Source of the DNA: Raillietiella orientalis | Lineage: Eukaryota | NCBI GenBank assembly: GCA_036172245.1 | Contig: JAYWIR010000045.1 | Location: forward strand, 744,001 to 808,000 | Direction of reading: 5' to 3' | DNA: 64,000 nt | Shown here: piece after piece, positions 24,415 to 64,000 of the stretch | Layout: each line of letters begins with the position of its first letter | Numbering within the stretch: position 1 is the stretch's first letter | Notes under the pieces: model-generated | The model's input: only the letters and a program-made list of their open reading frames with translations | What the model was told of the DNA's origin: nothing | Databases searched by the model: none | Position numbers and translations under genes: made by a program

Positions 24415-25039
24415 GGAGCAAATATTACAGATTTATGCAATAATTAGAAACTTTATTATTGCAAGTTTCAAACTCATTGTTTTCAAGTTTATTTTAAAAT
24501 TTAAAATTTGTGAAATTTTGGAACCATCCGTTGGAACGTATTGCTTTGACGCGGTAAAACATAACTGAATAAAATTAGTGTGCAAAGCAACACAAGCTTT
24601 AATGAACTGTGGGAAATAAATAAAAAAAACGAGGAAATTGCACCCAGTGGTGCTAAAAGTGCATTTTAGTCAAATAATTAAATGCCAAGCAACGCCGTTT
24701 TGTTGACCACATAGATTGTCAATCGGGTGGCCTTCTCCCATAAGACAAGCGCTTCAAGGTCATTTAGGTCTTGTACATGAAGATTAAAGCCATCAATTAC
24801 GGATGGCGAGCAAATGCGCGCTTACCTTTGCTCTGTGTACACGTCGATCTCTGAGCTGGGAAATTAAAGGCATGCAATACGAGATTCATTCATTTTTAAG
24901 ATTTATTATAGGAGCCATTTGCAGTGTAATCATTGAATATTAAAGCAAGTAAGAGCAAGATGTTGAAGTGTGTTAATTGTCATTCGAGCAGGGTATTGAG
25001 GTATTTTAATTGTCAGGTCTTTTGTAGTCTTGAAATAAT

Positions 25040-26200
25040 AGGTTTTTATGTGCCACTGCTGAATGTAAAGATGTCCTGATCTCTATAACAGAACTATCTG
25101 AAGCAGAGAATGCTTCAGATGGCCTTTTGAAGAAAGCAACCCAATGAAGACTTTTGACCTGGAACGGATTCGTCACAGTTGCTCCTTAGCTTGTATCTGG
25201 TAGAGACCACTCCATCGCTCACAGTCCTTGAAATGCTATCTACCATTCTGAAATTAGAGTTTCATAATGACTCATCTCCTTAAGTTAGGATAACGCTACG
25301 AGGTAGGCTTTCTTGCTAGCATCGTCAGAGTAACTAAGTCCTCACGAACAACGGTGTGAAGTTCATTTTTTTTTTCCTTTTCTTTTACAATCTCTCTTCT
25401 GCGTACGTTCTGAAGTCCATTGCTGTGTCGCAAAGATTTTCAAGCCAGCTTAATAGACCGAAAAACTGGTTGTACTGTGTGTAATGCATTCAAAGTCGAA
25501 TCAGAACACTCGTAGGAAGAACATGCAGCAAAGGATTGTGGCTTTTAGATTCATAAAATATATCAATTAGATGACCGAGCCGCAAGGGGCATCAAAAAAA
25601 CATTGCTTCTATAATACTTATGAGAGATTGCATGCTTACTAGAAAAAAAAAAAAAGAAAAGATAATTAGTTTAAATCTATAGATGCCTGCTCTCTGGGAG
25701 ATGACATGAATAAATACCTCTACCAGAGATCTTCGTGGAAACCTCTAACACGGCTTCATTTTCAATTAGAATCAATAAGAGTACATATCGAAGAGGACTT
25801 TGGTAACAGAATCGGCTGAAGCGGTTATAAAATTATTACAAGCGCAAGAATAATTCTGGACAGCGATACTCTGCAAAAATGTTAAGGATCTACAACGCTG
25901 GAAAGATTCTCAAATAAGGCCAAGTACCACGGGGGGCATCATTCACAGCAGCAGCTGCGCTCAGGTAATTTTTCCACGCGAGAGCCATGCCACGGACATG
26001 ACTGATTCCAGCACCGACACTTTCGTCATCGCTCTTCAACTACTTGTTCAGCCATCAAACTCAAGTGTGTCGTTTCCCTGAGTTTCCAGCGGCACTTCAC
26101 CTCATTCCATACTAATCGGCGTTTACAAAATAATTCACGGCAGGGAATGGTTTGCAGATTTCTGGTTTCCTGCCCCCCTTGCAATATTTATTAAATGCCG
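25040..26200 (+). mobile_element. Degenerate BEL/Pao RNase H-integrase remnant
   Basis: W(fs)TDSSQLL at ~25160 (WTDSxxVL), MTDSSTDTFVIALQLLV at ~26000 (xxDLSTxxFxxALxRF), VSSGTS (SDNGTNF-like) and QGMVCRFLVSCPP (GIxWxFxPxxAP). Confidence 0.5.
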
Positions 26201-27269
26201 TCTTGGTTTCATCAGGCGAGACTCACAAACTCATTGCGTTTGCAGACTGGGAGATTGCAGCAATTTCGAGATGAATTCGGGGAACTATGGAAATTGGATT
26301 CCGCTTGTACTGCGTTTTGTTGGTTGTGACTGCATCCTAGCTGTTACCTTGATAAACCATAATGCCAATATACAGTGTCAAAATATTATGTATGTGCTGT
26401 GAAAAAATATTAAACTTGACCATCTTTCCCGATGTAGGTTGTTGTCGCAGCTGAGAAGGCCGAGCTTTCCTGAATCTTCATTGAAAGGAAGAATTGCAGT
26501 CAAGAATCAAAATTTTGACAGTATCTTGTAAAAGGCAGTTGTAGAGAATAATGCACTCCAAATGCTAAGAAGTTTCAGTTATGTGCTTTGGAAGGAATGA
26601 AAGCATTTATTGTTTGTGTTACGTGAAAGAAGAGGAATCATGGAGGGAAAGATAAGAAACGGCGAAGCTGCGTCCCAACTTGTCATTCCCAAATCTGAAG
26701 ATCCGAGGACCTCTTGACTCCAACACATGCATACCCGAATACATACGGATTTAAACGGATATTTGGGGTGAAGAAATTTTTCTTAAGCATCATCCATTCA
26801 TCGTCTAAAAGCCCTATCTTTCTGACATCCTTTTAATCCTCCACGTTTTGCTGCATCCAAAGATGAAGCAAAACTGAATCATGACACTACGAACCAGAAT
26901 TCTTTGCTGGAGGAGATCTTCGAGTCAGATGCTTCAGTTTTCAGGCTACCAAAATGCAGTGAATATGCATGCAAATGAAGATTGGATGCTGTGTGCAATC
27001 CGGAGGAAAGTGGGACGTATCGCTTGCACCCAGGATTTCAATTATCACCATAGAGATCTGACTACGAAGTTGCTGGAAATCATCGCAGAGACCTGGCTTA
27101 TCGAATCTGACTGAGAATTTTCTGGCGAATAATGCATGCAAGGGATTCCGATTACCAAATCAGAGGAAGGAAGTGGAATATGCAAATCTGGTTCTGAGAA
27201 CGAACTTTAATTTAACAGCAAGCAACGGAAGCGCAATAACTTCAGTGGCACATGGAGGAATGGGACGAT

Positions 27270-28880
27270 CATCTGGATAAGGGAAAGAACGGTATTTTGA
27301 AAGATTTCGGTTGGTCTAATGGACAGTCACATCTGGTACACGACGAGTAGCAATCTGCGAAAATCAAGAGCGACTTCACGCAGGTTTCCGATACGAAATG
27401 CGCACGGCTATACGGTGCTCGTGCGCCCGCCTCGCACGCAAAGCTCATCTCCACGGAGGCATCTCCGAACTGCTTGAGCACCTGTTCCTGATCCTCTTTC
27501 CTCTCTTCTGGAATGATCAATCTCTAACGATTGAGCAAAAGTTCTTCCCCACACAAAACAGGCTTAACATTTTTGGTTTTCCAGTTGCATATTATTGGTG
27601 TGCTGTCAAGTCTTCAATACACACTCTAGCCAAAAAGGAAAAGAAGAAAAAACTCCACCTACTGTAGAGGTGTGCTTTCGAGGCATGCAAATCATTACTC
27701 TCGGATTCATGGCTGGTATTTTTATCTGTAAGAGAGTCACTATGCTGTAGGGAGAAGGGCAAATTGATGCCCTTCGTAATTGGCGCGAAAGGATTTGTAG
27801 AATCCCACAAAAGCGGTTCAGCTTACACTTGCGTGTCAAACTGTTGCGGCCATTCCTCGTTTCGGGGGAAGGCATGCGATTCCTCAAAACTCCCTCAGGA
27901 CGAGAACACCCGCTACTCCTTCCCGATGTTTTTAAACCAAAGATCGAACCACGTTTCTGCTATTCTGATTTGACCAGAAAAGAAGGCTTTCTGTGCTGTG
28001 AGAGCCGTGCCGAGAGGATGCAATGCTGAATTATGATCGATCTGAGGTATAGTAGACGAGTGTAATAGTGCTGCTATAGCAGTCCGATAATCAATAACGT
28101 GCTCTCTGTACATCACATAGTGTTTCACGTGTTGGAGTTTTGCAATACTTGACGAAAGGCTCGGTAATCCATTGCGTAGAAAACCGCGTGACGTCAGCTG
28201 GTGTTGCCTGATGAGGAACGCGATAACAAACTCTTCAGAGTAATCGCCACGGTGTTAGCGATAGAGCTGTCTATCCTGATGAGACGGAGACAGAGAGGAT
28301 GGTATTCGTTTGGTCCGGATTCTGCTAAACAGAGATTTGTATGAAGCCAGCAACATTTACGTCCAGTTTCTTGGACGTTGATATTGCTGGCGTGCGATTT
28401 GAGAGCACTTTTTTTCCCCTCTCCTCCAGCGTTCCCTGCGATTTAGGCCTGTGAATCGAGGTTACTCCAACTCCAACTCTCACGTAGCCATTTTGCCAAG
28501 CTCGGATGCTTCATCTACCTTATTCAGTTGTCTCTGAGACAGCGGAGGTACTTTGGCTCCATGCAGGTAATAATCCTTGAGACAGAAACGGCTGGTTCCA
28601 CAGGCATCCAGCAAGAGTCTAGTTGTCCTCGGAGGCGAAAGCATCATGTCAATGTGACTCCAGTCGAAAAAAATGCTTCCCGTACGAACAAAACATCCAC
28701 TGGTATTGATCGAAAACCAATCTTTCTTGAGACCAGATGCTTGCTTAAGCAGTCAGCATGTTGACTGCGATCTTTCTCCTTGGCAAAAGCTGGATGTGTG
28801 TTTTTTTTTTCCTTGTTGACAACCAGAGGACTGGTACACATCGGAACGCAGACCGGATCTTCATACAAATCTGTATTTGG
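27270..28880 (-). mobile_element. Degenerate BEL/Pao pol (RT/RNase H) remnant
   Basis: In the expected order on the minus strand: HYVMYREHVIDY, LTRKCKLNRFCGI / WDSTNPFAPIT (TKRxxLS..FDPxGxxAP), IPEERKEDQEQVLKQF (WDxxIPxE) and KSLLIFADC (LHIFADAS). Confidence 0.55.
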
Positions 28881-29249
28881 CAAATTATCAAGAAATGTAT
28901 TGATCTTCTGTGAAGAGAGGCAAATAAATATTTATATGGAGAGAACGCTCGAAGGGATCTTTCGATCGGTCAGTCTGTCGGAAGAGACCGACAACTTCGC
29001 CGGATGGCTTGCTCAAGATGCCAGCATCTCCAGAGCAAGCCATCAGAAAACTCTCCAGACCATCCGAAGGGCGATGGTCTCAAAAAAAAAAAAAAAAACT
29101 AATCGACACTCTCACACATACCATGAGCTCTCGTGTCTGGTATGATATTCGAAGAGGTGACCAAAGCAAGCAATGGGCAGCTGGATCCCTAGCACCTGGA
29201 CGGGTGCAAGCGCCGCAGCATATTGAAATCTTCTTGATCCGTCATCGAG

Positions 29250-29660
29250 AAAGTCTAGGAAACCAGGACAAGATAAACCATCCTGGTCTCCTAAATGAAC
29301 TATTCTTGCGTCTAAGCGGCAGAAAGCCTTAGTTCTCCTGGATCCGCGTTAGCGGTCCCGTGGCTGCTGCTGCTTGCAAGTTCGAATTCGCAGTGGAGGA
29401 TCAATGCCGAGAATGGGGGAGATCATCGTGGGTTTCCAGTCCCTTCATCAGGATGATACTGGTTGGCCTGCAGGTGTGGCACTGGATGAAACCGGAAACC
29501 GGAAGCGCTCGATGACCAGCCGGGATTTGGAAGTTTATCCTCTGGGGTCCCTTCTGGGATTCAAGGAGCCAGTTCCATTCGGACTTCCCCTCCGGTTGCC
29601 AAAGCTGTGCTAGGGAGATAGAAAAGCGAGCTGTTTCTTCCCACGGAAGGGGAGGGGAAC
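29250..29660 (+). repeat. Copy A of unclassified dispersed repeat family (also at 36750-37510, 52545-53140, 53990-54640)
   Basis: Aligns by eye with the reverse complement of 37160-37510, for example aaaccatcc(t/c)ggtctcct(a/g)aatgaact, and with 52860-53135. Confidence 0.8.
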
Positions 29661-29669
29661 CCTATATTC

Positions 29670-30750
29670 TTCCTGAAGATCCTGAACCCAACACGACAAT
29701 GGCAAATTCACCTTTTGGATCCGCGCGTTTTAACTCAAGGAAGCAATTTAACTCTATCTAAAAGAGTATCTAAAAGCAGCTCCTGGATCAGTGGAAGTCA
29801 TGATCCATGCTGGACTGCGTCGCGTCCTCGTCCACTTCTTGCATGCCGGGGATCACCTGCGCTTCTCCAGCTTCGTGCAGGAGGCTCGATTACATCTGCC
29901 GGCGCGAGCGGGGCACCCGCAAGAAGGGTTGCAGACCGCGCGTGTCGGAGAGATGCTCGAGGTGGGATGAGCTGAGGGTTAGCGTCACGGAGCTCCTGAT
30001 GCGACGCTCATCGGGTACCATGGAGGGTGCCGGCTGCTGCGGACAGTTGCAGGGCGGTAGGCAACCAGGCAAGTTGGGATCCGCTGAGGAGTGCTCGCAG
30101 CGACTCTTTGCCCGGAGCATCAGCCCGGCCCAGGGGACGGGCGGCGCACATGCGTCACGCCGGGACAGAACCGGTTCTTCTCTCCACCGCTGCGCGCAGA
30201 ATGGTTCCGACGCCGTCACGAATTTGGCGCTACCATCGCCATCCAGGAAGGTGGCGCAAGAAGGTGGAAGAGGTTGAGGAAGGGGGGGGGGGGCGGAGAT
30301 TCCCGCGGAACCGCATACCTCCCAGAACGAAAGTCGGGGTAGAGTCAGCATGCGCAGTGCTGCCTGGCCACCGGAAGAAACTCGGCGGCAGGGCTGGAAG
30401 AAGAGAGGCAAAGGAAGACGCCAAATACAGGCGGCGGCCTCTCCCTCTCGGGCGACAGAGAGTGCTAGCTCCACTGGGAACGGCTGCGTAGGATTTTGGG
30501 AAATCTGAGATTCGAAGAGCAGAGGGATTTCCGGAGAACTGTGATCCCCTGCGGACAGGCAGAAGGTTGGAAGGTGATGGTGGTGTGCGTTAGCATCCAG
30601 CACAGCCAGGACATATTCTGGGGGACACATTTGTGTCAACCGGGAAGGGCGAGCTATCGGCAGGCGAGCAAGATGGCAGAAATGGAGGAGTCCTACGTCT
30701 CACGCATCCATCTGAGAAATAAGACTGCAGATGAAGTTCAGCGTTAGTAA
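29670..30750 (-). mobile_element. Degenerate LINE ORF2 fragment (endonuclease, linker, RT start)
   Basis: YVLAVLDANAHH (GDFNAHH), GLMLRAKSR (linker GAxxRSxxR) and VKLLP*...ICHCRVGFRIFRK (RT N-terminal RPIxLxxxxYKIF). Segment 29980-30190 has a diverged same-orientation copy at 39970-40170. Confidence 0.45.
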
Positions 30751-31289
30751 ATCAACCATTTGCATGGATCGAAAATCAGCTTGTCCTCACCTCAAACCCC
30801 TCTCTTCACGGGATGCACAGGGAGGGGCGGAGGATGTAGAATGCTTGGGAGGTAGAAACGAAATAGATGATAGAAATCCCTCTGGGTTCTTTTTTTTGAC
30901 CGCTTTCCTTTCAGCTTTTTTTTCTTCTGGTTCTCCAAGTCTGAAAAACCATTTGCTTCCTCAGAGGGAGCTCTTCAACGCTGGTCCACGCCGCTCGAGG
31001 GTGCATGCAATTCCTCGAGTTAGGGGCCACCCTGCAGAGACCACTCTATAAATGCAGGAAGGCTCCGCAGAGAGGAGTCCATTCCTCTCACTCTCGAAAG
31101 TGGACCTCAAAAGAAACCCTCGCTCTGATTTCCACCGGGACACGCCGTGGCGTTTCTTGGAATTAAAAAGAAGACTCACAAATTGTGGTGGGATGCGTGG
31201 TCCTAACACGATCAGTTTGTGCATGGACCTGCCAGGTTGCCAGTCCGCAGACCGGTGAGGTTCACCTCATTAGTGGAGGGGAAGGGGAA

Positions 31290-34200
31290 ACAAAATAAAA
31301 CAAAATTAAAAGAAATAAAAACACTGTGGAGGGACAGGAAGGAATCACAGTCTGCTGGAGGGAATCCTCTACATCCTTTCCAGGATACCGGATAGGTTGG
31401 TCCTGATTGTACTCAGGTGAAGCCGTCTTGCTGCTATCCGCAGAAAGGGAAGTGCATACTCGATGGCGTCCCTTTCGTTCGTTCCTGCATCAGCCTCGCT
31501 CCAGGCCGCCACAATCCCGCCAATGTAGCAATGAGCTGCTAAGGCTACGGTTGGCGGTAGGGTATCCCGTGTAGAGAGGCGTTTTACAAGGTTCCCAGAG
31601 TTGCCAACCGGGGTCCGTAGGGTCGTCTTCAAAAGTTCTAATAGGGGCCAAAGGGCAACACATCTACAAGCAAGTGAAGGAGGGACTCTCGTTCTCCGCA
31701 CCTGCGACAGTACAGGCTCACACTCCCCAGTGTCCCCAACTTGCTCTCCAGGAACGGGCTAAGTGCCATCTCTACTCTGTGGAGAAGGCCAGACCAGGCT
31801 TCTAGTAGGCAGAATTTCCCCAATAAAACGCCAAGGTGCTTCAAGCCCTTTGGCTGGACGGCCCACTTTACACTAACCGCAACCACCGACGATTTTGACC
31901 TGTTCACTTCCAAGCCTGTCCAGTGGCTTAACAACTCGAAGTCCTCGATTTATGACGCCAGAGTGGACGAGAGGAGAAGCAGCAGAAGATCGTTGGCATA
32001 CGCTGACACGGCAGGCGCACCGAGGCAGGAGCTCGGCAGAGTGGCCAGAGTCGTCGTGTATGCTCTCAACACCAACTCTATGTTAAAGAGCAGGGGATCA
32101 GGCTATCTCCCTGCCTTATGCCGCGCCGAATAGTCAAAACGTCATGCACGCTTCGACTGCTGAAAGAAATGTTTTTCAGAGCGTCTCGCCAGCGGGAGCG
32201 CAGGTAGTTCGTTAATGAGGCCAGGAAGGCGATTCATTCCAGAAGGAGCTCCTGGTCGACGCAGTCGAATGCTTTTTGCTGCAGCCATTGACATCTTTTT
32301 CACAAAGTTTATTTTTTTTTTTTTAATAAACGACCCGGAAAAATCCGGGTGAAAATCAAATGCCTTTCGCAGGTCGACTGCGACCGCTAGGATTCCTATT
32401 CCCTCTGGCTTTCCTTTTCCTCCCCAGCGGACATCCCGAGATTCGGGTTGCCGACAATCCTTTTCTTTCCCTCCTCCTCTTTGTGTCTCAAACCATGTGC
32501 TATAGAAGAACAGTTTGCCATCCATACTTTGCCCGGGAACAGCGTAGGTCTGCTCCGGGCTGACTATGGATCCCGCCACCCGTCCCAATCTCTCAGCCCA
32601 TAGTTTCTCCAGCAACTTGGCGTCCGCGTTCACCACGGTGATCGGACGCCAATTGTTTATTAATCTAAGGTCTCCTCCGTTGAGGAGGAGATGCACCCTT
32701 GATGATCGGAACGAGGCGGGAACATCGCCTGCATCCCTAATCAGCAAAGTTAACTCCAGGGAGGTTATCCTGTCGCGAAGCACTGGTAAAACTACGCAGA
32801 CAGGTCGTCTTCCCCTGGAGCCTTCTGTCACAGTCAGAGGCGCCCTACACACCTCCTGAACATGGCTGACTCTGGTGGTGCTGCAGTCGCAACATTCTAT
32901 GTCTCCGCTCCCCTGGTACCTTCCACCTCTTGAGCTTCCCGACGGCATGGTTATCTCACCGATTGTGAAAGGTTCGTTAAGGCTTACCCTCATCCTCCTC
33001 TATCGCTGGAGCGACCATCTGGCAGCAAAAGCTGCTAGAAATGTCGCTCCGAAGGTTCCCTCGCGTAAAGGGAGGAAGGAAATCTTATTGAAATTTTTAC
33101 CTGCGATGGAATCCAGTGTTCCTAGTCCTGGTCATCCAGCAAGCTGGCCAACCCACACTGCCAGGCGGGTGGCTGCCAACCCTTGGCGCTCAGTCCCGGC
33201 TCTGTACTACGCAAGGCGTCGCACGTTGGGGTTTCCTGGTGTAACGTCGGACGTGCAAGTACGCCCTTTCGTTACGGACCCCTTCTCCAAACCCTACCTT
33301 GCTCACGGGCAGTATCGCCGCCGCTGATCTTCAGGGAGGCGCAATTATTGCTAGCTGAAAACAACTCCAAACCCTACGGGCAGATGGTCCGGGGGAAACT
33401 GCTCGCAGAATTCTCTGACTGAGCGTTTCAAACGATTCCAGTCCAAAAGATTCTGGAGGGTCAAGTCTCTCAGGAATTCGTGAAGATATTCCGCTGCTCC
33501 AGGGAGGTTCAACCAGTTCTCTGAGAGGCGCCGGGTCTTGGAAGGAGGTCCTTTGTAGCATGGGCAAATCTTAAAGGAAGTCATCCGATCCGGGAATGGT
33601 CGGAGAGAGTCGATCTCAATCTGCCTCGCTCGCCGACCCGTGGGCACAGGTCTTGGTCGAGGAAGACGTGGTCGAAGCTGCCCTTTATCCCCAATTGTCC
33701 CTCCAACAAGTTGCGCTCGCGCATTGCCTCTCACAACTCGTTGGCCGCGTCTTCCTGTGCACGCGGCACATGGGAAAGCAGGTGGAGGTTGGAATCTCCG
33801 CCTATCAGGCGCGCCCACCTGCCTCGGCCACCATTCGCGCTTCAAATAGTTCAAGAACGTAGTTCTCTTTGCATGCCCGTTCTTGCCTCTGGGAGCATAC
33901 ACGTCGGTTACGACAAGGGCGCTAGAGTCGGTCCACCTGAGAATCAGCTGGCCGGGAAGCGAGCGCGTCCCGTACGGCTGCGTCGACGGTTGGTTGCAGA
34001 AGGTACATCACCCTACGGGATTTACGGGGACCGCAACGCCATAGCAGCCATCCCTCCAGTTGCCTACTGGCGGGGTGGGAGGTTGTCTGAACTATCGCAG
34101 GAGCCACCCGACCCTTGGGCGACTGGAGGACTTGCGAGCTGGCAGACGACGACGCTCCTCTCAGTTGTGCCAAGGGACTCTTTCGGTGGGGCGAACTCCC

Positions 34201-36560
34201 GAGTGTGTCCCCCGAAGAACTTGTGGTTTCTCCCACGTGCGTGGACACTTCTATGTTTCCCTTTCCATGGAAACAGGACGTGCTTTTGCTGGTGATTGGG
34301 GCTATCATTGCAACCAGCGCGCAAACATTGTTTCCGGGGGAGTTGTCTCCTTGAACGCTTCCGCCCCTGCTCTTTGACTGAGATGTCCTCCAAGAACTGT
34401 GGCAAAGGCTCCAGCACTCCTGCACCAGAGGGACACCACAAGGACTTCTAGGCGCCGCTTCTTCTCACCAGGCGGCCCTTTGTTAGGTGCGGTCATCACA
34501 ACGATCTGTCTCATCCGCGTCATCGCCACGGCCCGCCGCCATCTGGAGTCGCGCGCGATTCTTCGAGAGGTCATCTCAATCGCCGACGTCAACATGACGG
34601 CTGCCAGTGGCCTCATCTTCCAGAAGAAGCGAGGAAGGAGATCTCCGGTAGCCAATGCCGGTTCTGAAAGGATGGAATGACCGAATCCAAAGACTCCTGT
34701 CCTCAACTCCCCTCATATCTTTTTTGTATTTTTTAGATATTTACTTGTGGTCCCCTCCCTCCCATTCTGGACTTTCGGTGTGACCGACTTGCGTGTCGGA
34801 GAGCTCACCCTCGAACTTCTGTTCCCTTTTTCTGGGAACCTTGTTCCCAGATAGTTTTTAATAAACGCCCCGGTTCACCTGGATGAAAAGCAGCCGTCCT
34901 TCTGTGATTGTTTAGATCACCTGGGCGTCCTCTGCGGAGATCACATGGATCTCCTGCAGGAGCACCACGTCGAAGTTTCTCAGCGCGGTGGCTATGTCTC
35001 GTCTTCGTCGCGCAGCTCGTTGACGTTCCAGCAGGCCACGCAGATTCTGCGGCAGGAGGCGACCTCATTCCCTATTGCTGGGAAGTTAGCATTGCAGCTC
35101 CCGCCTGTTGCTCGGCGGGATGCGAGTAGAGAGATCGAGTACCTGAGCACAGCAAGAGCGCGGCCGGGAAGCCCATGCGTACTAGAAGAAGCTCCTGGTC
35201 GACGCATCACGGATACCCTGCTCGGAGTTGAAGCGTGGGACTTTTTCACCCTGGAAGTCCCGCGTTCCCATGCTGCAGGATTCCCCTTCGGACGCCAGCT
35301 TTTTCTCCTAGCAAAGGGGGACGTACCTCTGCGGCGCCTTGGACTTGCATCCTGACTCCCTGAGGGGCCTCGACGGAGGATGCGCTTCCGGCCTCGCGGC
35401 GGGAGTCTGAGATATCTCTCCCCCCTCTGAGGTCACGGACCGTTTCAGGGTCTTTTTCGCGTCCTGGACTGGCTGTCTCAGCATGGCTGCCAGCACCTCC
35501 ACCGCTTGCACGAAGGTGGCGTCCTGGCGTCCAGCCGGTGAGTCGCTCAGTTCATCCTCTGCTTGCAGAAAACGTTCGCGTTCGCGAGTCCCAGAGGAGG
35601 GAGCGGTTTCTCTTGCGGTAGCAGCTTCGATTGCCGGAACGCGACCGATGGCCACCTTGCATTTTCGGATTTTTTCGCAACGCGGGTGGAGGAGTTGTCC
35701 GTTTTTGCCTGCCTTCTTTCCTTCCTTTTGGAACTCTACCAGCTTCCAGACCTCTTCTGCGTCAGCTGCTTCGGAAATTTGTGTTTCCGACTTCTGCTGT
35801 TCGTGTTGGAACTTTGCCTGCTGATGTCATCCGTCCTCCTTTTGTTTTTTCTTTTTCGGTTTGTAAGCGCGCTTTCCTTTCCTGAGCCATTGAGGACTGG
35901 AAATACATTTTTCGGGCACATTTGCCTAACTTGTCCCTTGTTTCCGCAAAGGTGGCACTGAATGCTTGAGCATCTCTTTTTTAAATGTCCCGTGACATCA
36001 CAGTGGCCACCGTACTTGGGCTTCCCCACGCACCAAAATCGACCGGATCGGTGTCGATCTTCAGTTTGTGGAGGGGCCCGCCGTTCTCGCTCTCTGAGTG
36101 TAGCCCTCCAAAGCCCTTAGAGGGGCTGCGCTTGGCCCATCTTGCGTGAACGGTGACGTATTTTTCAAGTTCCACATGCACATCATTCTTGAGCATGGGG
36201 AGCGTGATGCCCGTGAGGTGGACCACTATGGAGCGGTCCTCCGTCACGGGAAAGATCTTGCGGCTTTCCGCCGTAATTGGGGTCTTCAGCGAGCGTTGTG
36301 CTAGCTCTGCATTCTTGCAGGTCAGCTCAACTGCTGGCTCACGCTTCGTATGGAAAGCCCTTTGAAGTCTTCCTCCTGGACACTTAAATTGCGCAGCTCC
36401 CTCGCGAAGAAGCGCGCAGTGCTTTCCTCAGACAGGCCCTACCTTGTAGATCAGGGAGGGTTTGTAGGCCTGGGCCCGATAAGCATTCGATTCGGCCATG
36501 AATGCCGCTAATGATGCTGCAGTCACAGCACTCCATTTCTTTGCTCCGGCGAGGTTGATT
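31290..36560 (-). mobile_element. Decayed two-ORF non-LTR retrotransposon (L1/Tx1-like), internally deleted and interrupted
   Basis: ORF1 has IVVHLTGITLPMLKNDVHVELEKY and zinc knuckles HCDVTGHLKKRC..CHLCGNKGQVRQMC. The ORF2 endonuclease has CWNVNELR, FDVVLLQEIH, YAP and IGGDSN. The RT has NWRPITVVNADAKLL, IVSPEQTYAVPG, VDLRKAFD, RRGIRQGDSL, SAYANDL (YADD), GLEVNRSKS and KHLGV. The C-terminus has CRRCGERESLLHLL, followed by a T-rich 3' end. Many frameshifts and stops. Confidence 0.85.
34060..34800 (+). mobile_element. 3' fragment of a second LINE nested antisense within the Tx1-like endonuclease
   Basis: Separates the DVVLLQE motif from the YAP/GDSN motifs by ~0.8 kb. The plus strand reads TLPPLLFD*DVLQELWQRL (decayed ETxxHLLFDCxxxxxLW) and LIRVIATARRHLESR, followed by a T-rich tract at 34715-34745. 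Confidence 0.4.
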
Positions 36561-51450: not shown

Positions 51451-51559
51451 CGCGTCTCCTCCGCTGCTGCACCATGGACACGACTCGCAAGCAAGCAAAA
51501 GTGAATGATCCCGGAAGCCCGACGGCGGGAGGAATCGGTCGCGCACCTCGTCAGGATGC

Positions 51560-53989: not shown

Positions 53990-54640
53990 ATCCGGAGTCC
54001 ACGTCGGAGTCTGCGGAGCTGCTGAGGTCTCCACGTGTGGCACCACCAAGCGTCGCGGGCTCGAATACTCGGAAAGAAATCGACGCCGAGAGATGGGGAG
54101 GTGCGTCGCGGGTTCGAGTTTCTCCCGCGAGATGACGCAGATTGGCCTCCGTTCATTCGGGTGCGGCGGCACTCGTAGGGGTTCAAACCGGATTCTTCCG
54201 TTGAGGGCCGAGACAATGGGAGTCTATCTTCAGGTCCGTCCAAGAATCAAGGAGTGGGGAATTCCCCCTCCGGTTGTACAAAGGAGAGCAGAATCCTCAG
54301 TGTGGGGGACCCCTTCGCGTCGTACTGATGGAGTAGGTATGCAGCTACCTCTCCAGAGAGTACAGAGAAGCTGCCGCTCCCTTCGGGGAAACAGTGCACT
54401 TCTGAACTTTGGAAGCGTCCCCCTTCAGAGGAGGAGGAAACAGGAGCGGTTGTCTGGCTGGTTCCCACCGGAGAAAAAATTCCGACTAGCAGATCCTTTC
54501 CGGGTTCCCTTGGGGGAAGAAAAATGGAGCAAACCCCTCCGGGGGTCCTTCCAGAGAGAATCAGGGAGAAGATTCCTTTCGGGGTTCCTTTCGGAGACAA
54601 CCAGGGTGAAAGTGATCTCCATTCCGGAGATCCCTCCCTA
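53990..54640 (+). repeat. Copy D of unclassified dispersed repeat (inverted relative to copy C)
   Basis: The reverse complement contains 4-5 units of ~40 bp (consensus approximately TCTCCGAAGGGAACCCGGAAAGGATCTGCTCC..TTTC) and the same body, for example cccg(c/t)gacgcttggtg shared with copy B. Confidence 0.8.
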
Positions 54641-54739
54641 GGCGTGAGAAGAACGGACTCCGATCCCATTCCTGGATTCATAGGGAGGACCCCTCCCTAA
54701 ATGCCCCCCTATCTTGAAGAATTACACGCACCCCTCGGA

Positions 54740-55820
54740 TGGCGTGGAACCTTGTTAAAGTGAATGCCAACTGGGCGAATTCCCAGGATCGGCGCGCTTC
54801 GAACGCAGGCCTGCATCCCCATGTCCCCCCCTTCTCCCGAGGGTCGTTCGTTCTGCATACGTTCCCCCGTTCCACAGCATCTGCGTTCCGCAAGGGGAGA
54901 CTCGGAACGGGCGTTACCAAGCGGGACGCACTCCCCTTTCTACAGTTTCTCCTTCCGAGGTCACCTCTGCACGAAGAGAGAATCCCGAAGGCTCACAGGT
55001 GGCAACAGGAAAAGGGAAGACCGTCCCAGCTCCTCCTTGCCTCTTCGGTCCGCCTCCCGGTCGCTTACGGAAGAGAATGCGCGGCAACCCCTCCTTTCTT
55101 GGGCGATCGGCCGTCGTGGATTTTCACACGCTAAGGTCACCGGTGGAAGAGCAAAGGAATTAGGTGGTTGGACAACGGGCCAGCTTGAGGACTCTGTGGC
55201 CCCAAGTGCTTCATCGAAAGGACCATTACGATGAGGTGAGCTGCTGGGAATCTCACAGGAAGACCTCGAGTGGCCCCCAGTACTAAAGAATCGCCAGACC
55301 CTCTTCCTGAAGTGGCAGGAGTCGGTACTTCTGCCGTTCACTGGGGTCTCCCGTGCAACGCCCGCCGCTCCCACTGCATCCGGGGTCTGTGGACTCAACT
55401 GTTGCAGATGAGGGGAATGGGAATCCCTACCTCACCTGCTCTTAGACTGTGTTGCCCTCCGGCCCCTGTGGTTGCGTTACGCAACGGCGCTTGGTGCACC
55501 GACGGACAATCCCATGGACGCGATAAAGCGTCTCTTGTGCGATGGCCTTTCGCCTGCGGCAGCCCTAGAAGCTCTTTGCTGCTGCCTACGTGGGATTGTG
55601 TCGAACTGGAGCTACGCGAGAGGAGGACGGCGCGATAGGGACGCCATCTGCTTATCCCTGCGCTTCCTGCGGACGGCAGCAAGATGGCTCCACCTGGGGC
55701 ATACTCGGATGGAATTCGCCGACATCCTGGAAACGATGCAGAGGACGCCCTCCAGCACCCAGTGATCGCTTTCCGTGCCTCCCAGAGTTTTTCTATTATT
55801 GATTTTATTTTTGCTTATCC
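54740..55820 (+). mobile_element. Degenerate LINE ORF2 C-terminal half (R1/LOA-like)
   Basis: LGTGV, RPSQLLLASSVRLPVAYG (RRLLxSVVxxxxxYG) and LKWQES (WQxRW), followed by a T-rich tract at 55788-55820. Confidence 0.4.
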
Positions 55821-56199
55821 TTGTCCCCTCTGTCGTCGAGGCGAACTTCGCCTGTCTGCGTGCCGTTCGGCAGGTTCCGAACATTTTCGGACAATGTAGG
55901 GTCGACGGCCCTACGCAGGTTTGTTTGTTATGTTTATAATCCACGTCCCAGCATAACCAGGTGATAAACCAAGGTGACTGGCTGCTAGAGAAAACTCATC
56001 TCTCGTCACCATGATGGGGAGGGGGAGGACTGTGCTTGCAGGTGGCAGTTCTGACCAACCGAAAGGGCGCGCGCGCGTCGACGCGCACCGAAAGGCGAGC
56101 GCGCTCGCAGACTTGCCGGCGGCCACCCAGTAGGAACGCATGCGCCTGGAGCTCTCGCGCTGTAATCGAGAGGCTTCTGGTTCACCCCCGGGAGATGGA

Positions 56200-56790
56200 G
56201 GGAAGGGGCAGGAGAGCGAGATTCCTGCCGTCACCAGCAGGCTCTTCACCTGAGAGGATCCGTGGAATCGTCGAACACCGTTTTCCTCCCGGAACGCTCG
56301 ATGAAATTTGGAGGTTCCCGAGTGCTCTTCCCTCGCATCGTCTTCCGGCCAAGGGAGGGTCTCGTGGCCACGGTGCTTCCGCGGGCATAGGCACTCCTAA
56401 CTCTACGTTTCGTTCAGAGAGGGCACCACCAGTTGCTCGGCAGAGAACGGACTTTGTGCGCATCGCCTCGGAAACCCGTGTTGCTGCATCTGCAAGGGGA
56501 GGTGCACCTTGGTCAAGCTTCCCTGCCAGTGTTGGGATCCCTCCGGGAGAGGACATCGATGAAGGTGCCGAGCAGACCTCCCGAGTAAGGGAGGTGGTTG
56601 TTCCCATACGGCAGAGGCGACTGCACGTCCCACTTTCCCCTCGAACCCGCTCGATCTCGTCTCGGGGCCAACGAGAAAGATATCTTCCTACGCCGTTTGA
56701 AAACGCTGCTGCCCTCCCCCTCCCCATACGCGGAACGAAAGTGCGATGGGCTTGTGAGCCAGTTTCCGGTAGCCAGGCAACTCTTAGCAC
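56200..56790 (-). mobile_element. Degenerate LINE endonuclease fragment (RTE-like)
   Basis: RVAWLPET (DIxxLxET), NGVGRYL (GVGFxV), VCSAPSS (VYAPTS) and SERNVELG (GDFNAKxG) in order in one frame. Confidence 0.5.
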
Positions 56791-56796
56791 GCTGGG

Positions 56797-57720
56797 TGCT
56801 TCGCTATCCCTACCGCCTATTCGGGAGCTCGCGAGAGGTTACTCGTACCTTTTCTCTGGCCAATGCCCACCCCCGCTTCGCATCGCATGCCCTCCTGGCT
56901 GCTGAGTGCAGGAGAAGCGCCGTCGCGTTCGCTTCGCCGCAAGTTTTCAAGCATCCCGCGATTAAGGAAGGGAAGAAAGGAGAAGGAGAAAAGGCTACAG
57001 ACTACCTTCGGCGAAAATCGCTCCGGATTCCCAAGATGCATCCGGATGGCTCCCAAGGAGCGAGGCGACCGGCATCCCGTGAAAGGAAGAGCTCGAAGCT
57101 TTCTCGCCATTGTTCCGAAAGAAGGTCCTTGCTGCCCGGGTGCCACGAGGGCTTGGCCGAGCAGGAGGGGTGGAGCCTTCCGCAGCGCGTGGACGGTGGA
57201 AGCTTCGACTTGGGCTCGCCGAAGACACGCAGGTCCCGTGAGAAAATACTACCCCCCCCCTTCCCTAAAAAAAAAAAGAAAGGAAGAAAGGAAGGAAGCG
57301 ACAGCGACGCCCTCGAAAGCGTAACCGTGCAAAACGTTCTCGCCTCGGATTTCTGGACCTTTCCGTAGAGGATCGAGGGAACGCCACCGCTGGCCCTTGG
57401 AAGAAGGGGAGAGGAACGCGACGACGCTTCTCCTGCACTCAGCAGCCAGGAGGGCATGCGATGCGAAGCGGGGGTGGGCATTGGCCAGAGAGGAGGCTCG
57501 CTAGAGGTAACCCCTCTCGAGACCTTACTCTCGGAGAGGACCTCACCGGTCGATGGCAAGTCCTTCGCGCGTGGTGGCACCTAATATTCCACCACGAAAT
57601 CATTCGGACGACTTTATCGTGGAATTCTTGCGAACAAAAATTTTAATAATAAGTGCCTCGGCACATCCGTGTGATAAACCTCTCGCGAGCTCCCGAATAG
57701 ACGGCAGGGATAGCGAAGCA
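56797..57720. repeat. Nested inverted repeat / fold-back structure
   Basis: Inner arms 56853-56930 and 57414-57491 (78 bp, 1 mismatch). Outer arms 56797-56840 and 57677-57720 (44 bp, 2 mismatches). The central spacer is 483 bp, with 12 bp between the left arms and 185 bp between the right arms. Confidence 0.95.
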
Positions 57721-60700
57721 GCCGTAAGGATAAGGGTGGAGCGAGAGAGAGGGGGAGGAGGAAGAGGGAGTGGCGAGCACGCTCGGGGTGCACGCTTTTC
57801 GTGTTTCCCTGCCTCCTTCCGCCTCGGAACCGCGCGCGCTCGAGCGGGCGAGGCGAAGAGAGAGATGGGAGGAGGAGGAGGAAGAGGAAGACTCCACGTC
57901 GAGCAGGCGGGAAGAAGGAGGAGCCGGAGCTGCCCGCCCGTCACCCCTGCCACGCGACGCAGAAAGCGTGTTACAAGATGTTCGCCAACGGTGTGTCGCT
58001 TCCTGCCGCCATACCAACTGCAGTCAGGCAATGTTTCGGGGAAGGGAGAGGGAGTGGAAGAAAAGGAGGGGGATGGGGAGAGAAGCGGATTCCTGCTTCT
58101 TCCTTCGCCGAAGAACGGGAGAAATACGGGGGTAATAAAGCAAAACTTTCATTTATCTTGCAGGCCCTATCCGCCGAGGCATGCACAATTCAACATGCCT
58201 GGCAACGATTTGTCTTCTCGGAACGCTTTCGTTCGCTCTGCCGTGGAGGGGAAGTGAGCTGCAGACTTTCATCATTTAAATAAATAAAGACGGGATGTGT
58301 ATACAGATGAAATTATGTAAATGCGAGCAACATAGTTCCGAGAGGGGGAGGAGGAGGAAACGCGCCGCGCTGCGAGGCAGCCTGAGGACGCAGCACGAAA
58401 GGGAGGGAGGAGGAGTCGGGGGTCGTCACGAGGAGGGGGAAGGGAGATCTCGCCACCCCGAGGATGCTCGGACCACCTCTCCTTCCTCCCCCCGCGCGCG
58501 ACCGAAGCGCCAGAGTCCGCCGAGGCCTCCCCGCGTGGCGCAGGAGGCGAAAGGAGTGGGGCCTCCCGTTCGAGAGCCCGGGAAACTCGGAGGGGGAGAG
58601 GGCAGAACACGGGACACCACGCTGTGGGTGTCTTTCTAGCCTGGGGAGCGTGCAACGCAGGCGCCGCTCCCTCTTTTCAGGGGGTGCTGCTGGAGGAAGC
58701 CGCGCTCTCCACGGGGCGGTCCGGGAGGAACGAGAGCTCCCGACGAGACCCGCCGCTCCAGTCTGGCTGCCGTCGTGCGCGTCGACCGCCGAAGATCCGG
58801 GGAGCGGGCGGTGTCACGGGACTCTCACGTCCTCCCGCCGGACTGCTGGGGAACTCGCTCGGTCGCGCCCACGCGAAGAGCCAGCCGGCGTCACAGGGTG
58901 CGCTCCAAAGGGAAAAGAAATTCTCGCTCCCTTCCTGCGTGAGGGGTTTGCCCCGAGGGTCCCTTTTCTTTCCCTCCTTTCCGAAGGCACATACCGGGAC
59001 CGTTGGTTCAGATCAGAACTTGCGAGGAAGATCCATCGAGGCCTGAGGCCTGCGGCTTCCCTGAGAGGCATCCTGATGCCAGAATGGCTCCGCAAGATCG
59101 TAGAGCGACTCCAACGATCTCAAGGTCGGCGGCCCCTGCATCAGTAGGTGACGAGGCTCATGTACGGGGGGTAGCTGCTCCTGGGAGTCTCCATGGCTTC
59201 TTCCCGGGATCACCCTAGTCCTAACCGCGGGTTGCTCGGCAGATGTCTTCAGCGGCGGGGGGAAGGGAAGAGACCTGGCTCGAGAGTCGCCGTCGCCAGA
59301 TGTCGCTCCCCATGCCTTCACGAGGCGCCCACGCCTCGGCCGCCACCGCTTCCAAGCCGTCGCTGGGATCTTCCCGCAGAGATCTTCGTCAGCATCCTGA
59401 AGAGCCATCCCTGTTCTTGTTGTTTTCGTTTCGACGTTCGCAGCTCTTTGCTGAGAGGCTGCGAACGAGCGCTGCGGGCGGCCTGGTCTGATCCCGAGGC
59501 CGGCGCAAAGGCACCGTTAGATGCATCCCAGATTCGGTGAGCGAGACGGTTGCCGCGGCAATGGAGAAAGCTTTTCGGAAGGCTTTCCCCGCTCTCCGAG
59601 GATCAGTCGCGAGGTCCTCTGCGAGTTTTTTCCGGCCTTTCTCGCTGCCGCTTTGGCCCGTGCCATTGAAGGGGGATTACCTGGAAGGGGACAGAGGGAG
59701 AGGGAAGGGAGGAGGGGCTACTCAGCAGCGCGGACCGCAGCAACAACTGGGGTCGGTGTCACCCATTGTTTCCCGCATCTTGAGAGGAGCGATGGCAAAG
59801 CTGGCGCGGGGCGGCGCGATTGTGCAGAGCAGCATCAGCCTCTATCCTGGAGATCCCCACGTTTCTGCTGGGTTCGAGTGCCGTTTTTCCCCTTTTCCTC
59901 CCCCCCTTTCCTCCGGGGAGCAGTAGCCGAGTCAACCCGGCTGCCTTCGCGGGTCCAGCTCCGGGGAGCCGAGCTCGGTCTGTCCCCTGCAAGGGTGGTT
60001 CACGGAAACAAGAGCCTGACCGGAGGCTGCGTTCTTCGAGACGCTCGCACCTTTCAGAGCTAGGAGGTTCGTCCGGCCTCAGTCCATCCCCACCTCTCTC
60101 TCTGGAGACGAAGAGGGAGATTTTCACTCTTCCTTTTCGGCGTTTCGGCGACGGCCTGGCTGCTGATGGACCCGCCCAGTCGATTCGTTCACCCCACCCC
60201 CAATCCTCCAGAGGAAGAAGGGGAATGACGAGACCGACACCTCACGCCATGGCACGAGGAGCAGGAGCAGCAGAGGAACGGCATCCTCCCGGTTCTTCTT
60301 CCTGGTTTCCGGAACGCCCTTTTCGTCCGCTCCTCTCCCTGCTTGGAGGCTAGGGGTTGCCTGAGGGGAGGAAGGGAATGCGATACCCTTCCTCCGATAG
60401 ACTCGAGAGCCCCCCATTTCCCGAGACATGGCAGTGGAGGCAGGAGCTCTTGCACTTTTCCTCCCCTTCTTTTGGTCTCGAAGATTCCCATGCCACCTCC
60501 TTCCCTCAGCGAAGAGCCGAGCTGTGGGATGAGGGGATTCATTCCACAGCTTCCCCCTAGGTCGGGGGGCTGTCTGGAACGCGCGGTAAGAAAAATCTCC
60601 TCCTTCTCCATCCTCCTACTAGGGTGACGCCCCTCCGTGCGGCGGCGGCAGAGTTCCTTCCACGAGCGCGGCAGCAGCAGTCGGCATCTTGGGCTACATC

Positions 60701-63700
60701 TGCAGCACCGTGGCAGCCCTCATCGCAGACGGGACTCGGTCAGCAGACGAAGGAGGCTGACTCGTCCCAATGGCCACCTGCACCCTGCATGAGCGACCAG
60801 GAGACTTCAGCCGACTCCAACAGCGAGGGCAGGCATCTCTTGCGTCGCTCAAGGGCTGAGGACCGGAAGGACCATAGCCCGGTGACCTTCCATGATTTAT
60901 TCCTTGTCGATCCCTCCCATTGCCACTGCAGCCCATGCCCCGGACTCCAACTGCACTCCCATGCACGTCGGGCAGTGGCCCTCCCCTTTTTCCTCGTTCC
61001 AGCGCCCTGTGCGCCTGTGGCAATGCGCGCCTTTATTTTTAATAAACAGACGCCCCGAGGCTGCCCTTCTCATCCCGGATTACCGGGCTGTTTATTTAAA
61101 ACAAAAGGGAGGCACCGACATGTACCGTCCTGAAACGAATGGACAGAGCCGGGAAGGGAGAGGGGAACCGGAGGGAGGACCAATGGATAAGTAAATAGGA
61201 GTGGGAATGACCTGACTCACAAGGAGAGAGACAAACACGGTTTCCCGGAGCGCCCAGGCATCAAATCCGAGGAGGAACTACTCGAAAAGGAGCCTTGCGC
61301 CCTGGTAAATCCTCTCCTTTGCTGGCGGTGGCGAAGCAAGCGGCCGAAGAGCTGCAATGGCGAGGAGGAGAGCGGGGGCGCGGGCGTCTTGTTCCATATG
61401 GCGTCGCCCAATCGCAGGTCGGCAGCACCAGAGGGGTACGGGGCGCGCGAGAGAAGGTCCGGCGGCTGCGACGACGAAGACATTCTTCGTCCTGGTGTCA
61501 TCCAGGGCATACGCTGCTGTCAGTCAAGCGCCGGGAGGGAGGCGGAAGGAATTCCAGCTTCGTCCGCCGCTAATGCGTCGGGGGAGTCCCTTGGGTTCAA
61601 GGGCGCCAGCGTCTCTCGCACATGCCTCCGCCAAAGTGGTGCCCGGTCCCGCCCGAGAGAGAGCACCCTGAGCCCCTCCATTTCGCCCTGGCGAGGGAGG
61701 TCTCCCGTTACTCGTCCGAGTGGGCCGCTCACCCGCGGAGGCGGTCAGCCGCCGGGTCGCTGCCGGAACCCGCGCGTCGAACCTCGGGGGAGGAGGTCAT
61801 CGCTCACGCCCAACGGAGGGAGGAGACGCGAGAAGACGTGGACGAGGAATGCGGCGGCGAAGGAGAAGCAGCGCGGCTCCCTCCGGCATTCCGCGGCCGG
61901 ACGCTGGCGGTGGACGCTGCCGAGAAGAGGCGGGGGCGGAGCGAGTCGGAGAGGGCGCGATCCTCTCCGAGGACCCCGCGGCATCTGCTGGTCCCGGAGA
62001 GGGAAATCCCGCCGCCTCGCCCCTATCTGGACAGTCCTTCGACCCCGCCCACAGTCCGTTTCCCTCTTCTTTTTGCGTTCCTCCTGGATTCCTACCGGTG
62101 GCAGGCTGCCTTCCGCATCCGACCGGTGCCTGAGCGGCGGCGCGACTTTACCGGTTCTCCCGCCCCCCCTCCCTTTCTCACGGGAGTGAAGTCCTTCCCG
62201 GAAGACGGCCGCTTTCTCACACACCCCTTTCTGGATGGCTCTTCCCTTCGGAGTGTCCCCTGCCGGAGGGATCGTCACCCCTCGACAGGGGACCCTGCGG
62301 CGAAGCTTTCCGGGACTGTCAGCCTTCCTTCCGAGAAGCGGCATCTCCCTTCATCGATTCCGGTTCACTCCCTTCGCTCCTGGAGGGTGGAGTGACCTTC
62401 GTCCCGCTCGCGCGAAACGCTGGAGAGTCGAACTCCTGCCTCCGCTCGCGCGTCGAGCAGGCCCAGTTGGAGGGAAGGGCGTCCTGGAGATGGTCCATCC
62501 GCAAGGCTGTACCCGGTGGGCGTATGCATCTCTTCCAGGAGGCACTCGCTCCTCCTTTCCGGTGCCTCCCTGCACAGGAAGCAGCTGGAGACGTGTACAA
62601 GCGGGAACGATGCTCAAAGGTGGAGGGGTGGGGAGGGTGGACCGTGCTCCCAGGATTGGAGACTTTCTGAAACAACCCCGCGGAGGGATTCCCACGGTCC
62701 ATCGTCATCCACGTGGGCGAGGAGGTGCCGGACCACCGCGGAGTCCTGCAGGACCCCGCAGGGCCGATCTTCCCCACTGACGATATCGTACGTGAGAGGA
62801 GGTGGACGGAACCAGCGGCGAGGTCCTGATCCTTCGGCTGTCGGCATGCTGAGAAAGCGATCCTTCTATTCCCCCCCCCCCATTCCCTTCCCTCCCCCGA
62901 TTCTTCCCTCTCGACCGGTGGCCGCGGAAATTTCGCGCGCCCCTCGAACGGCGGCGGAAGCGCAGCGGGCAGTGAGGCTCCCTTCCCTATCCGAAGCCGG
63001 TGGGATCTTGGCGGGAGGAGGAAAGCGGCGGTGACCTGGATGCGCGGGAGGTGGAAGGGACAGAGAGAGCGCGCAAGCCCGGAGGCATTGTGTCCTGCGA
63101 GTCATCCGGGAAGAGCTCTCTCCTCCCGGGGGACGATGCAGGCCAGCGCGTCTATCCTGTTGCGATCCAGAGCTGTAGCGAGCTCCACCACAGGAAGAAG
63201 GAAGAAGACGCTCTGCTCCCTCCTCCTCCTCCCTCCTTCGAGGCACCGCTTCCAGAGCTCAGACCCTATTCTCTCCTCCTCCTCCTCCTCCTCTTTTGTG
63301 GACCCCGACTGAGAGTGGAGCGCGCCGCCGCCGCATACGAAAGGAAGACGCGCGCCCGCCCATCGTGTCGCTTCCCCCAGGAAAAAGAGGCCTTTGAAAA
63401 ATGGCGCCGTCCCCCTCCGGAGCAGAAGAGAAGAGAGAAAGAAAAAAAAAAAATGAAAAGAAGGAAAAAAATGGGGCCTTCTCTGGAAATTACGCCGACG
63501 CTTCTGCTCTTCCTTCCCCGTTCTCAGCCTCTCTCCCGAGTCGCGGCCGCTCTTCGCTCCGCCGTGCGAGGAAGTGGTAAAGTAATTTACACCGTGCTTG
63601 AGCACTCCCATCGCAAAGGCCCCATTATGCTCCTGTCAGATGAACAATTTGTCCTTGATGCGACGGTAATCATTGTTCTCGGGAAGGGGGTACGGTTTAT

Positions 63701-64000
63701 TCTCGAGGGATGTCCGTTCTTAAGGGTTTTTGTGTTCCCGAACGATTTATTTTTATCTTTTCGCAGCATCTTCTCCTCTCCCGCGAGTTATTAGCGCTCT
63801 CGGATGCGAGCGAAAAGCACACACGAGGAGTGGGCGCGCGGGCGGAGTGCGGCTCGAGAGGCCGGGCCTCGCGCGCGCTCACAAAGAAGCGGCCATGCTG
63901 ATGCGACCCCAGCGGGAAAACTCGGAGGGAGGGCATGGCGGTGGCGTCCGTTGGCATTCTCGTCGACGACGACACCGGCGGCGGCGCTCGAGATTCAGCG

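Follow-up and report, generated by a model that had tools for sequence, protein, structure and literature searches.

Vertebrate isochores are domains of GC content shaped by gene conversion biased towards GC (gBGC), honeybee genes lie in the AT-rich part, and in fungi with repeat-induced point mutation (RIP) there are AT-rich isochores whose repeats demonstrably mutate after insertion. Here we describe a boundary of base composition in Raillietiella orientalis, within a window of 64,000 nucleotides (assembly GCA_036172245.1, contig JAYWIR010000045.1, positions 744,001 to 808,000 of the forward strand; all coordinates below are those of the window): an AT-rich left part with three genes gives way to a GC-rich right part with decayed repeats. 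The right part is likewise a GC-content domain, and it shares with the RIP isochores a sharp boundary between gene-rich and repeat-filled DNA of very different composition; the direction is reversed, however, and the repeats tested here are unshifted after insertion. An earlier note on this DNA had proposed that dead transposons in the right part decayed from AT towards GC and CpG through a region-specific substitution process. Our data point to another explanation, which we regard as probable: an isochore-like boundary, combined with gene-body methylation of the invertebrate type and with repeats that were GC-rich on insertion.

Several animal genomes offer comparisons. The honeybee has very strong gBGC, with B = 5.71 and a predicted equilibrium GC (GC*) of about 0.96 at a genome GC of 0.34, according to the consulted parts of PMC4406589. 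The honeybee, the invertebrate example of GC-content domains shaped by gBGC (PMC4406589; PMC5635611), resembles the locus described here in its AT-rich background, in GC that changes strongly within short stretches and in a fixation bias in favour of GC that is proposed as the cause. The locus differs from such gBGC domains in that its tested elements have no net excess of weak-to-strong changes (A or T to G or C; W->S), and in that the GC* that they imply, about 0.5, is not above the present GC. For a fig wasp of about 30% GC, the consulted sections of PMC12405890 report methylation that is restricted to gene bodies, unmethylated transposable elements (TEs), and TE insertions that lift local GC over the extremely AT-rich introns. 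Among copies of the same TE family, the number of substitutions that lower GC relative to those that raise it differs there between compartments, and the GC contrast is attributed to gBGC: in TE-rich regions, genes have a lower GC at third codon positions (GC3) and TE copies have relatively more GC-decreasing changes, attributed to missing gBGC (PMC12405890, same sections). That study, like ours, used the copies of one TE family to compare W->S with the opposite changes (S->W) between compartments, but its TE-rich compartment is the GC-poorer one, whereas the repeat domain here is GC-rich, 56-64% (PMC12405890, in the sections consulted). Some tunicates have a bimodal distribution of GC among genes (PMC13746493, excerpt). 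Finally, in the excerpts of PMC8857917 and PMC8857923 on the mosaic methylation of invertebrates, CpG depletion is likewise found in gene bodies only, with CpG near expectation in repeats and intergenic DNA. Here, this pattern is read from the sequence alone, and it differs in that the left intergenic DNA at 10-20 kb is intermediate.

The steep AT-to-GC ramp described in the earlier note, which is much stronger than chance would give, was confirmed by windowed profiles of GC and of the observed/expected ratio of CpG (CpG o/e), which the note itself had suggested as a check, and its hand counts for five lines of 60 nucleotides proved exact (GC 0.20, 0.35, 0.35, 0.633 and 0.75). Positions 1-25000 have a GC of 0.347 and a CpG o/e of 0.48; for positions 25001-64000 the values are 0.564 and 0.90. 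Per 2-kb window, GC is 0.29-0.40 up to 26 kb, increases from 0.41 to 0.55 over 25-31 kb and then stays high to the end of the window. Of three models compared on 200-bp bins, a ramp from 24.0 to 30.0 kb between a flat and a sloping part fits GC best (sum of squared errors 0.882, against 0.956 for a step with slope and 1.128 for a plain step), and beyond the ramp GC gains about 0.026 per 10 kb to the right. With raised GC (0.53-0.64) across at least 34 kb and a boundary ramp at 24-30 kb, the domain is isochore-like. CGCG is indeed frequent on the right, as the note had said, with 5.9-8.4 occurrences per kb against 0.2-0.4 on the left (15-40 times more), but the excess over the expectation from dinucleotides (Markov-1) is modest, merely 1.3-1.4-fold (101 versus 72.5 and 142 versus 107). 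TpA is strongly depleted at 28001-64000 (rho 0.43-0.45, against 0.67-0.70 on the left); on both strands of this region TAA, TAG and TGA are found at 0.49, 0.43 and 0.92 of expectation, respectively.

CpG changes at a different position from GC. CpG o/e is 0.17-0.44 in the gene bodies (1-10 and 20-24 kb), 0.59-0.76 at 10-20 kb and 0.71-1.01 from 24 kb on, and a 500-bp profile shows a step from 0.40 at 24001-24500 to 0.96 at 24501-25000; this step, at about 24.5 kb, coincides with the 3' end of the last gene. The left gene bodies have a rho(CG) of 0.31 and a rho(CA/TG) of 1.36, against 0.86-0.93 and 0.87-0.94 in the right domain: the CpG depletion with its excess of TpG/CpA is limited to gene bodies and ends where the last gene ends. 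Loss of CpG to TpG/CpA is the usual mark of germline methylation, and the CpG contrast is therefore probably caused by gene-body methylation; the right domain is presumably unmethylated, because its CpGs are kept. With 0.2-0.4, the CpG o/e of the left part is lower than that of the honeybee. The earlier note had seen on the right a decay towards GC/CpG, with a mutator as one possible cause. For the CpGs no mutator is required, as they are simply undecayed: in the repeat family A, described below, transitions were found at 9 of 164 consensus CpG sites and at 57 of 635 other C/G sites, although consensus filtering biases the CpG figure down. Within the left intergenic DNA of intermediate CpG o/e (10000-20000), GC is slightly raised, with a maximum of 0.40 at 14-16 kb, and Pfam recognises nothing.

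The direction of base changes could be followed in family A, which was found by self-BLAST and has four copies that are 60-70% identical to each other (Table 1). W->S and S->W changes were polarised by maximum likelihood with two states (W and S) on a star tree, using 327 columns with four copies and 274 columns with three. The ancestral GC is 0.60 (bootstrap 0.53-0.67) and the present GC is 0.57-0.61; the probabilities of W->S (0.199) and S->W (0.185) are balanced (equal-rates test 2dlnL = 0.09) and GC* is 0.52 (bootstrap 0.40-0.62). The 3:1 columns, scored by parsimony, agree, with 36 W->S changes among 85 W sites and 57 S->W changes among 146 S sites. When only well-aligned columns are used, the ancestral GC is 0.63, GC* 0.46-0.51 and the present GC 0.58-0.61. 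Under every GC* tried, the ancestral GC is at least 0.50. Family A was thus GC-rich at its origin and, if anything, has slightly lost GC since. GC* (0.46-0.52) is below the present GC, so that the W->S bias of a gBGC domain is absent, as judged from family A alone.

The second informative element is the fossil of a reverse transcriptase (RT) from a non-LTR retrotransposon (long interspersed nuclear element, LINE; LTR, long terminal repeat). At E<=1e-3, a phmmer search returns 874 relatives, headed by P0123 (6.7e-40, 60% identity), a protein of 619 amino acids with a full RVT_1 domain, and tblastn maps residues 1-420 of P0123 to 33142->31752 in four pieces, in several frames and with stops. The Pfam match of the fossil to RVT_1 is weak (16.6-16.7 bits, E 0.006). 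The fossil has kept its coding periodicity: GC at the three codon positions is 0.565, 0.439 and 0.603 over 310 codons, and the GC3 of 0.603 contrasts with 0.24-0.41 in four host exons. Its residues were compared by their fraction of GC-codon residues (GARP), which is 0.286 in the fossil and 0.347 in P0123, its closest intact-looking relative, and replacements between the two are balanced, with seven from FYMINK to GARP and nine from GARP to FYMINK. In the segments aligned to the 150 relatives that were listed (of the 874), the fossil is more GARP-rich in 133 of the 150 comparisons (mean 0.311, against 0.244 in the relatives); P0123, over the whole protein, reaches 0.349, against a median of 0.227 for the same 150. 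As the fossil is less GARP-rich than P0123 and the replacements are balanced, the GC-richness appears to be a property of this LINE family and not of its decay. Metagenome loci for P0123 contain distant relatives only, with 22-35% identity, plus one with 61% over 28 residues.

Every element that could be polarised, the ancestor of family A as well as the LINE fossil, therefore contradicts a decay of fossils from AT towards GC. The idea that the right part holds fossils stands in so far as a LINE RT remnant, repeat families and a U4 pseudogene are there, but the hAT, piggyBac and cytochrome b fossils that the earlier note had named could not be found. Six-frame read-through scans with Pfam, in 18 frame translations, covered 25-38 kb (E<=0.01) and 38-51 and 51-64 kb (E<=0.05): in 25-64 kb, no family of hAT, piggyBac or cytochrome b was detected and no further Pfam family was contributed by any of the three segments. 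The note had also cited conserved residues of hAT and cytochrome b that were replaced by GC-codon residues, but these examples could not be located in the sequence; among the places where the cited motif DART was found, the one whose surroundings most resemble hAT (46.0-48.6 kb, minus strand) matches no Pfam family even at E<=10. Likewise, among 136 open reading frames (ORFs) of at least 120 amino acids right of 28 kb, Pfam recognised nothing save the weak RVT_1 match, and no endonuclease match turned up in the six-frame scan. Since the genuine LINE fossil scored just E 0.006, more decayed fossils could escape such scans. tRNAs are absent.

We tried, and rejected, two other readings of the right part. 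It has many long ORFs, 129 of at least 120 amino acids in 28-64 kb, while mononucleotide shuffles have 37.2 +/- 5.3; an order-2 Markov model, however, expects 111.8 +/- 9.1, and hidden coding was rejected: the ORFs are long because TAA and TAG are scarce. A bacterial or algal contaminant was rejected because, in some 130 long ORFs of the right part, Pfam recognises no family except the weak RT match.

Our preferred explanation combines these results as follows. On the left, three genes of the housekeeping type form a compact cluster in AT-rich DNA, and their bodies were probably depleted of CpG through germline methylation. The right part, without a recognisable gene and with its CpGs kept, would, in part at least, be composed of old interspersed repeats, GC-rich already on insertion, and these would since have kept their GC or slightly lost it, which places the substitution equilibrium of the domain near 50% GC and not at the 35% of the left side. 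A regional force in favour of GC, most likely recombination-linked gBGC rising rightwards, may keep the equilibrium GC high. As it stands, the finding (a ramp, a CpG step at the end of a gene, GC-rich ancestors, balanced changes between W and S, and no hypermutability of CpG) needs no new mutational process or mechanism. The region-specific GC-favouring process of the earlier note thus survives in one part: gBGC, one of the options that the note had named, is still plausible as a process that maintains the domain, with an implied GC* above 0.35, while the proposed AT-to-GC decay of the fossils is contradicted.

The evidence for such a regional force comes from the equilibrium and from differences between repeat copies, and some of it weighs against our explanation, as do further points given here. 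With all columns of family A, a GC* of 0.30 is rejected with p 0.0003, 0.35 with p 0.0048 and 0.65 with p 0.017, but after alignment filtering the rejection of 0.35 is only at p 0.04-0.13. The GC* of the right domain (0.46-0.52) is moreover compared with a left composition of 0.35 that is the GC of the left part and not a measured GC*, as the left part has no repeat from which GC* could be estimated. Of three repeat pairs, two have the GC-richer copy in the GC-richer flank (73:49 for pair B and 50:71 for A1/A2, two-sided p about 0.03 and 0.06 by normal approximation); pair C is opposite (17:27). Counted by copy of family A, S->W to W->S changes are 13:5 and 11:4 at 29 and 37 kb, and 13:14 and 20:13 at 53-54 kb. 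These numbers are small, and they fit a GC-favouring force that strengthens rightwards. All copies of family A lie inside the window and could have arisen by local duplication of sequence with an already raised GC, and if this is what they are, their ancestor is uninformative on the consensus of a transposon. At 60-70% identity, alignment error also pulls the estimates towards the present composition. Lastly, just about 5.4 kb of the 39 kb on the right are assigned to repeats and the remainder is unclassified, so that to call the whole domain made of GC-rich repeats is an extrapolation. A more far-reaching interpretation, possible in our view but doubtful, is that this invertebrate genome passes from one substitution regime to another over some 6 kb: on one side a gene-free repeat compartment with a GC* of about 0.5-0.6 and no CpG decay, on the other a cluster of methylated genes at about 0.35. 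What keeps the compartment would be a local boundary, sharper than usual, in conversion biased to GC or in another repair bias that favours GC, and its LINE and SINE-like (short interspersed nuclear element) families would be matched to the compartment (GC3 0.60) and not to the host genes (0.24-0.41).

An older regional process, for example strong gBGC in a recombination-rich or subterminal domain, could have enriched all of the right part long ago, with the polarised repeats being later insertions or local duplications; the mechanism of the earlier note would then be right on a deeper time scale. GC that still climbs rightwards, the local origin of all family A copies and a GC* above the 0.35 of the left are in agreement with this, as is the fact that unrelated elements have a GC close to that of their flanks (0.535 versus 0.546 for the U4 copy, 0.521 versus 0.557 for the LINE, and 0.53-0.61 versus 0.51-0.59 for A1-A4). 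The U4 copy, counted by hand against the Rfam consensus, has roughly eight changes from W to S and six from S to W, which leans the same way with too few changes to carry weight. Set against these points are the coding periodicity and high GC3 of the LINE fossil together with P0123, which is from elsewhere and still richer in GC-codon residues: both point to an element that was GC-rich while it was active. The tested elements also have no net W->S excess, and the window has no telomere repeats. Overall, we consider such an older process unlikely, although it deserves to be taken seriously. The strong version of the earlier note went further and invoked a mutator or repair bias that would be new and specific to this region, the reverse of RIP or of methyl-C decay, and that turned originally AT-rich hAT, piggyBac, LTR and mitochondrial fossils GC- and CpG-rich. 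The contrasts in GC and CpG are genuine, the excess of CGCG over the Markov-1 expectation exists in its modest form, and the RT fossil is more GARP-rich than most of its listed relatives, but the named fossils are undetectable, the ancestor of family A was not AT-rich under any GC* tried, W->S and S->W changes are balanced, the fossil has less GARP than its nearest relative and CpG parity is explained by the lack of CpG decay rather than by gain. Furthermore, gBGC has been reported before from AT-rich insect genomes (PMC4406589, in the parts consulted). The note itself had named GC-rich consensus sequences with copies drifting to AT as the outcome that would speak against it, and the elements that could be polarised match this; on these terms its strong version is already largely refuted, and we find it hardly credible.

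The boundary could also be an assembly artefact that fuses, within 24-31 kb, the DNA of two organisms or that of two loci which are unrelated in a single genome. The dinucleotide signature of the left intergenic DNA differs from that of the right domain by a sizeable delta* of 0.144-0.162, against 0.044 inside the right domain, and the two sides have no repeat in common. At a chimeric join, however, the statistics should break at one coordinate, and they do not: CpG steps at the end of the gene and GC ramps over several kb, while rho(TA), rho(CA), rho(GA) and rho(AC) shift monotonically through an intermediate transition zone (for rho(TA), 0.67 in the left intergenic DNA, 0.60 in the transition and 0.45 and 0.43 in the two right halves). 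Copy A4, a repeat of the right type, sits in the ramp. Nor is the right part prokaryotic or gene-dense foreign DNA, as Pfam recognises no family in its 39 kb besides one RT of eukaryotic type, to which the U4 copy is added, and the window is free of N. An artefact is therefore very unlikely.

Table 1. Coordinates of genes, repeats and composition domains in the window
Feature	Position	Strand	Basis and remarks
ZDHHC17/13-like palmitoyltransferase (ankyrin + DHHC)	1012..2542	-	Pfam; AT-rich, CpG-depleted
Caprin-like gene	3354..6518 (5' limit left unmapped; to at least 6.5 kb)	-	dimerisation-domain exons and RGG-rich C-terminal exon
VPS8/HPS5-like beta-propeller, solenoid, RING gene	21395..24411	+	Pfam, nearest atlas clusters; last gene before the GC-rich domain
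Transition zone	24500..30000	.	CpG o/e already about 0.6-1.1, GC 0.38->0.55; intermediate dinucleotide signature
GC-rich domain	30001..64000	.	GC 0.58, CpG o/e 0.90, TpA-poor; runs past the window edge
Non-LTR retrotransposon (LINE) reverse-transcriptase fossil	31752..33142	-	phmmer, tblastn; frameshifts and in-frame stops
Degenerate U4 snRNA copy	33295..33436	+	Rfam RF00015, 50.6 bits (gathering score 46), full model 1-138
Repeat family A, copy A1	36880..37534	+	self-BLAST and MAFFT; GC 0.531
Repeat family A, copy A2	52570..53232	+	self-BLAST and MAFFT; GC 0.611
Repeat family A, copy A3	53900..54584	-	self-BLAST and MAFFT; GC 0.574
Repeat family A, copy A4	29126..29596	-	self-BLAST and MAFFT; GC 0.531; within the transition zone
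Repeat B	55382..55860; second copy 31246-31728	+; second copy -	66% identical
Repeat C	39963..40171; second copy 29969-30189	+; second copy +	73% identical

The three genes of the left part, all within 1.0-24.4 kb, were found with Pfam scans of ORFs read from stop to stop, and the placement of the genes in the AT-rich part by the earlier note was correct. The palmitoyltransferase-like gene has an Ank_2 match (1.3e-37, 1856-2542) and two DHHC matches (3.6e-19 at 1282-1872 and 7e-09 at 1012-1278); its ankyrin ORF matches the ANK domain of human ZDHHC17 (5w7j_A) with 1.2e-58. The Caprin-like gene is recognised by two matches to Caprin-1_dimer (5.2e-09 at 6324-6518 and 7.7e-08 at 6014-6196), and the RGG-rich ORF at 3354-4184 is probably its C-terminal exon. 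The VPS8/HPS5-like gene has matches to Beta-prop_HPS5 (7.1e-08, under the curated cut-off) and to a RING domain of the Vps41/Vps8 type (1.3e-06), and its closest atlas clusters are VPS8 and HPS5 (scores 0.90, 0.89 and 0.87). Its long exons are split by short stretches that hold in-frame stops, which we read as putative short introns; an alternative genetic code was considered as an explanation for these stops and was rejected, as they are confined to the short intron-like stretches. Short introns between long exons, together with the confinement of CpG loss to gene bodies, make this look like an animal genome of the invertebrate type. A search with the ankyrin ORF gave generic ankyrin proteins only, and atlas clusters from Chordata and from Arthropoda scored about equally. 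The protein P0001 had no match when compared with solved structures. All three genes lie inside 25 kb (1-24500) and their human counterparts ZDHHC13, CAPRIN1 and HPS5 are all on chromosome 11p; the neighbourhood is possibly a trace of old synteny.

For the intergenic DNA between these genes, the earlier note had described LTR fossils at 13-19 kb that stayed AT-rich. None was found: Pfam detected no family at 12.4-20 kb in six frames and no LTR element there or among the 89 ORFs of at least 55 amino acids in 1-26 kb, and self-BLAST returned no pair of LTR-like direct repeats, with nothing beyond a match of 35 bp.

The U4 copy matches the Rfam model over its full length with several broken or non-canonical pairs, and we read it as a likely pseudogene. 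Its distance from the LINE fossil, counted from the N-terminal limit of the RT similarity that can be detected, is about 150 bp. The two are on different strands, and the U4 copy may be a retro-copy or there by coincidence; their orientation speaks against a simple chimeric retrocopy of LINE and snRNA. Within family A, the 5' part (36880-37100, 52570-52800 and 54350-54584) has internal tandem sub-repeats of about 40 bp, and no tRNA-like head was found with ARAGORN. By far the youngest repeat of the window is a set of nested inverted repeats at 56794-57723: identity is 98.7% between the inner arms (56853-56930 and 57414-57491), which extend to 108 bp at 88%, and 93.6% between the outer arms (56794-56840 and 57677-57723). 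It may be a foldback element, an element similar to MITEs (miniature inverted-repeat transposable elements) or a recent inverted duplication. The GC-rich domain also has two imperfect palindromes, 37732-37785 (54 bp) and 47870-47933 (64 bp), which are about 80% self-complementary.

The locus carries a caution for the interpretation of genomes from sequence alone: in vertebrates, dead transposons as a rule become AT-richer and are depleted of CpG, but this is not necessarily so for repeats that escape methylation and start out rich in GC. Provided that the boundary is continuous, it would be a compact natural case in which composition borne by repeats, composition removed by methylation and composition maintained by recombination bias, which are usually confounded, can be separated. 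The three causes have their changes at separate positions here, with a CpG step (24.5 kb), a GC ramp (24-30 kb) and a slow gradient beyond.

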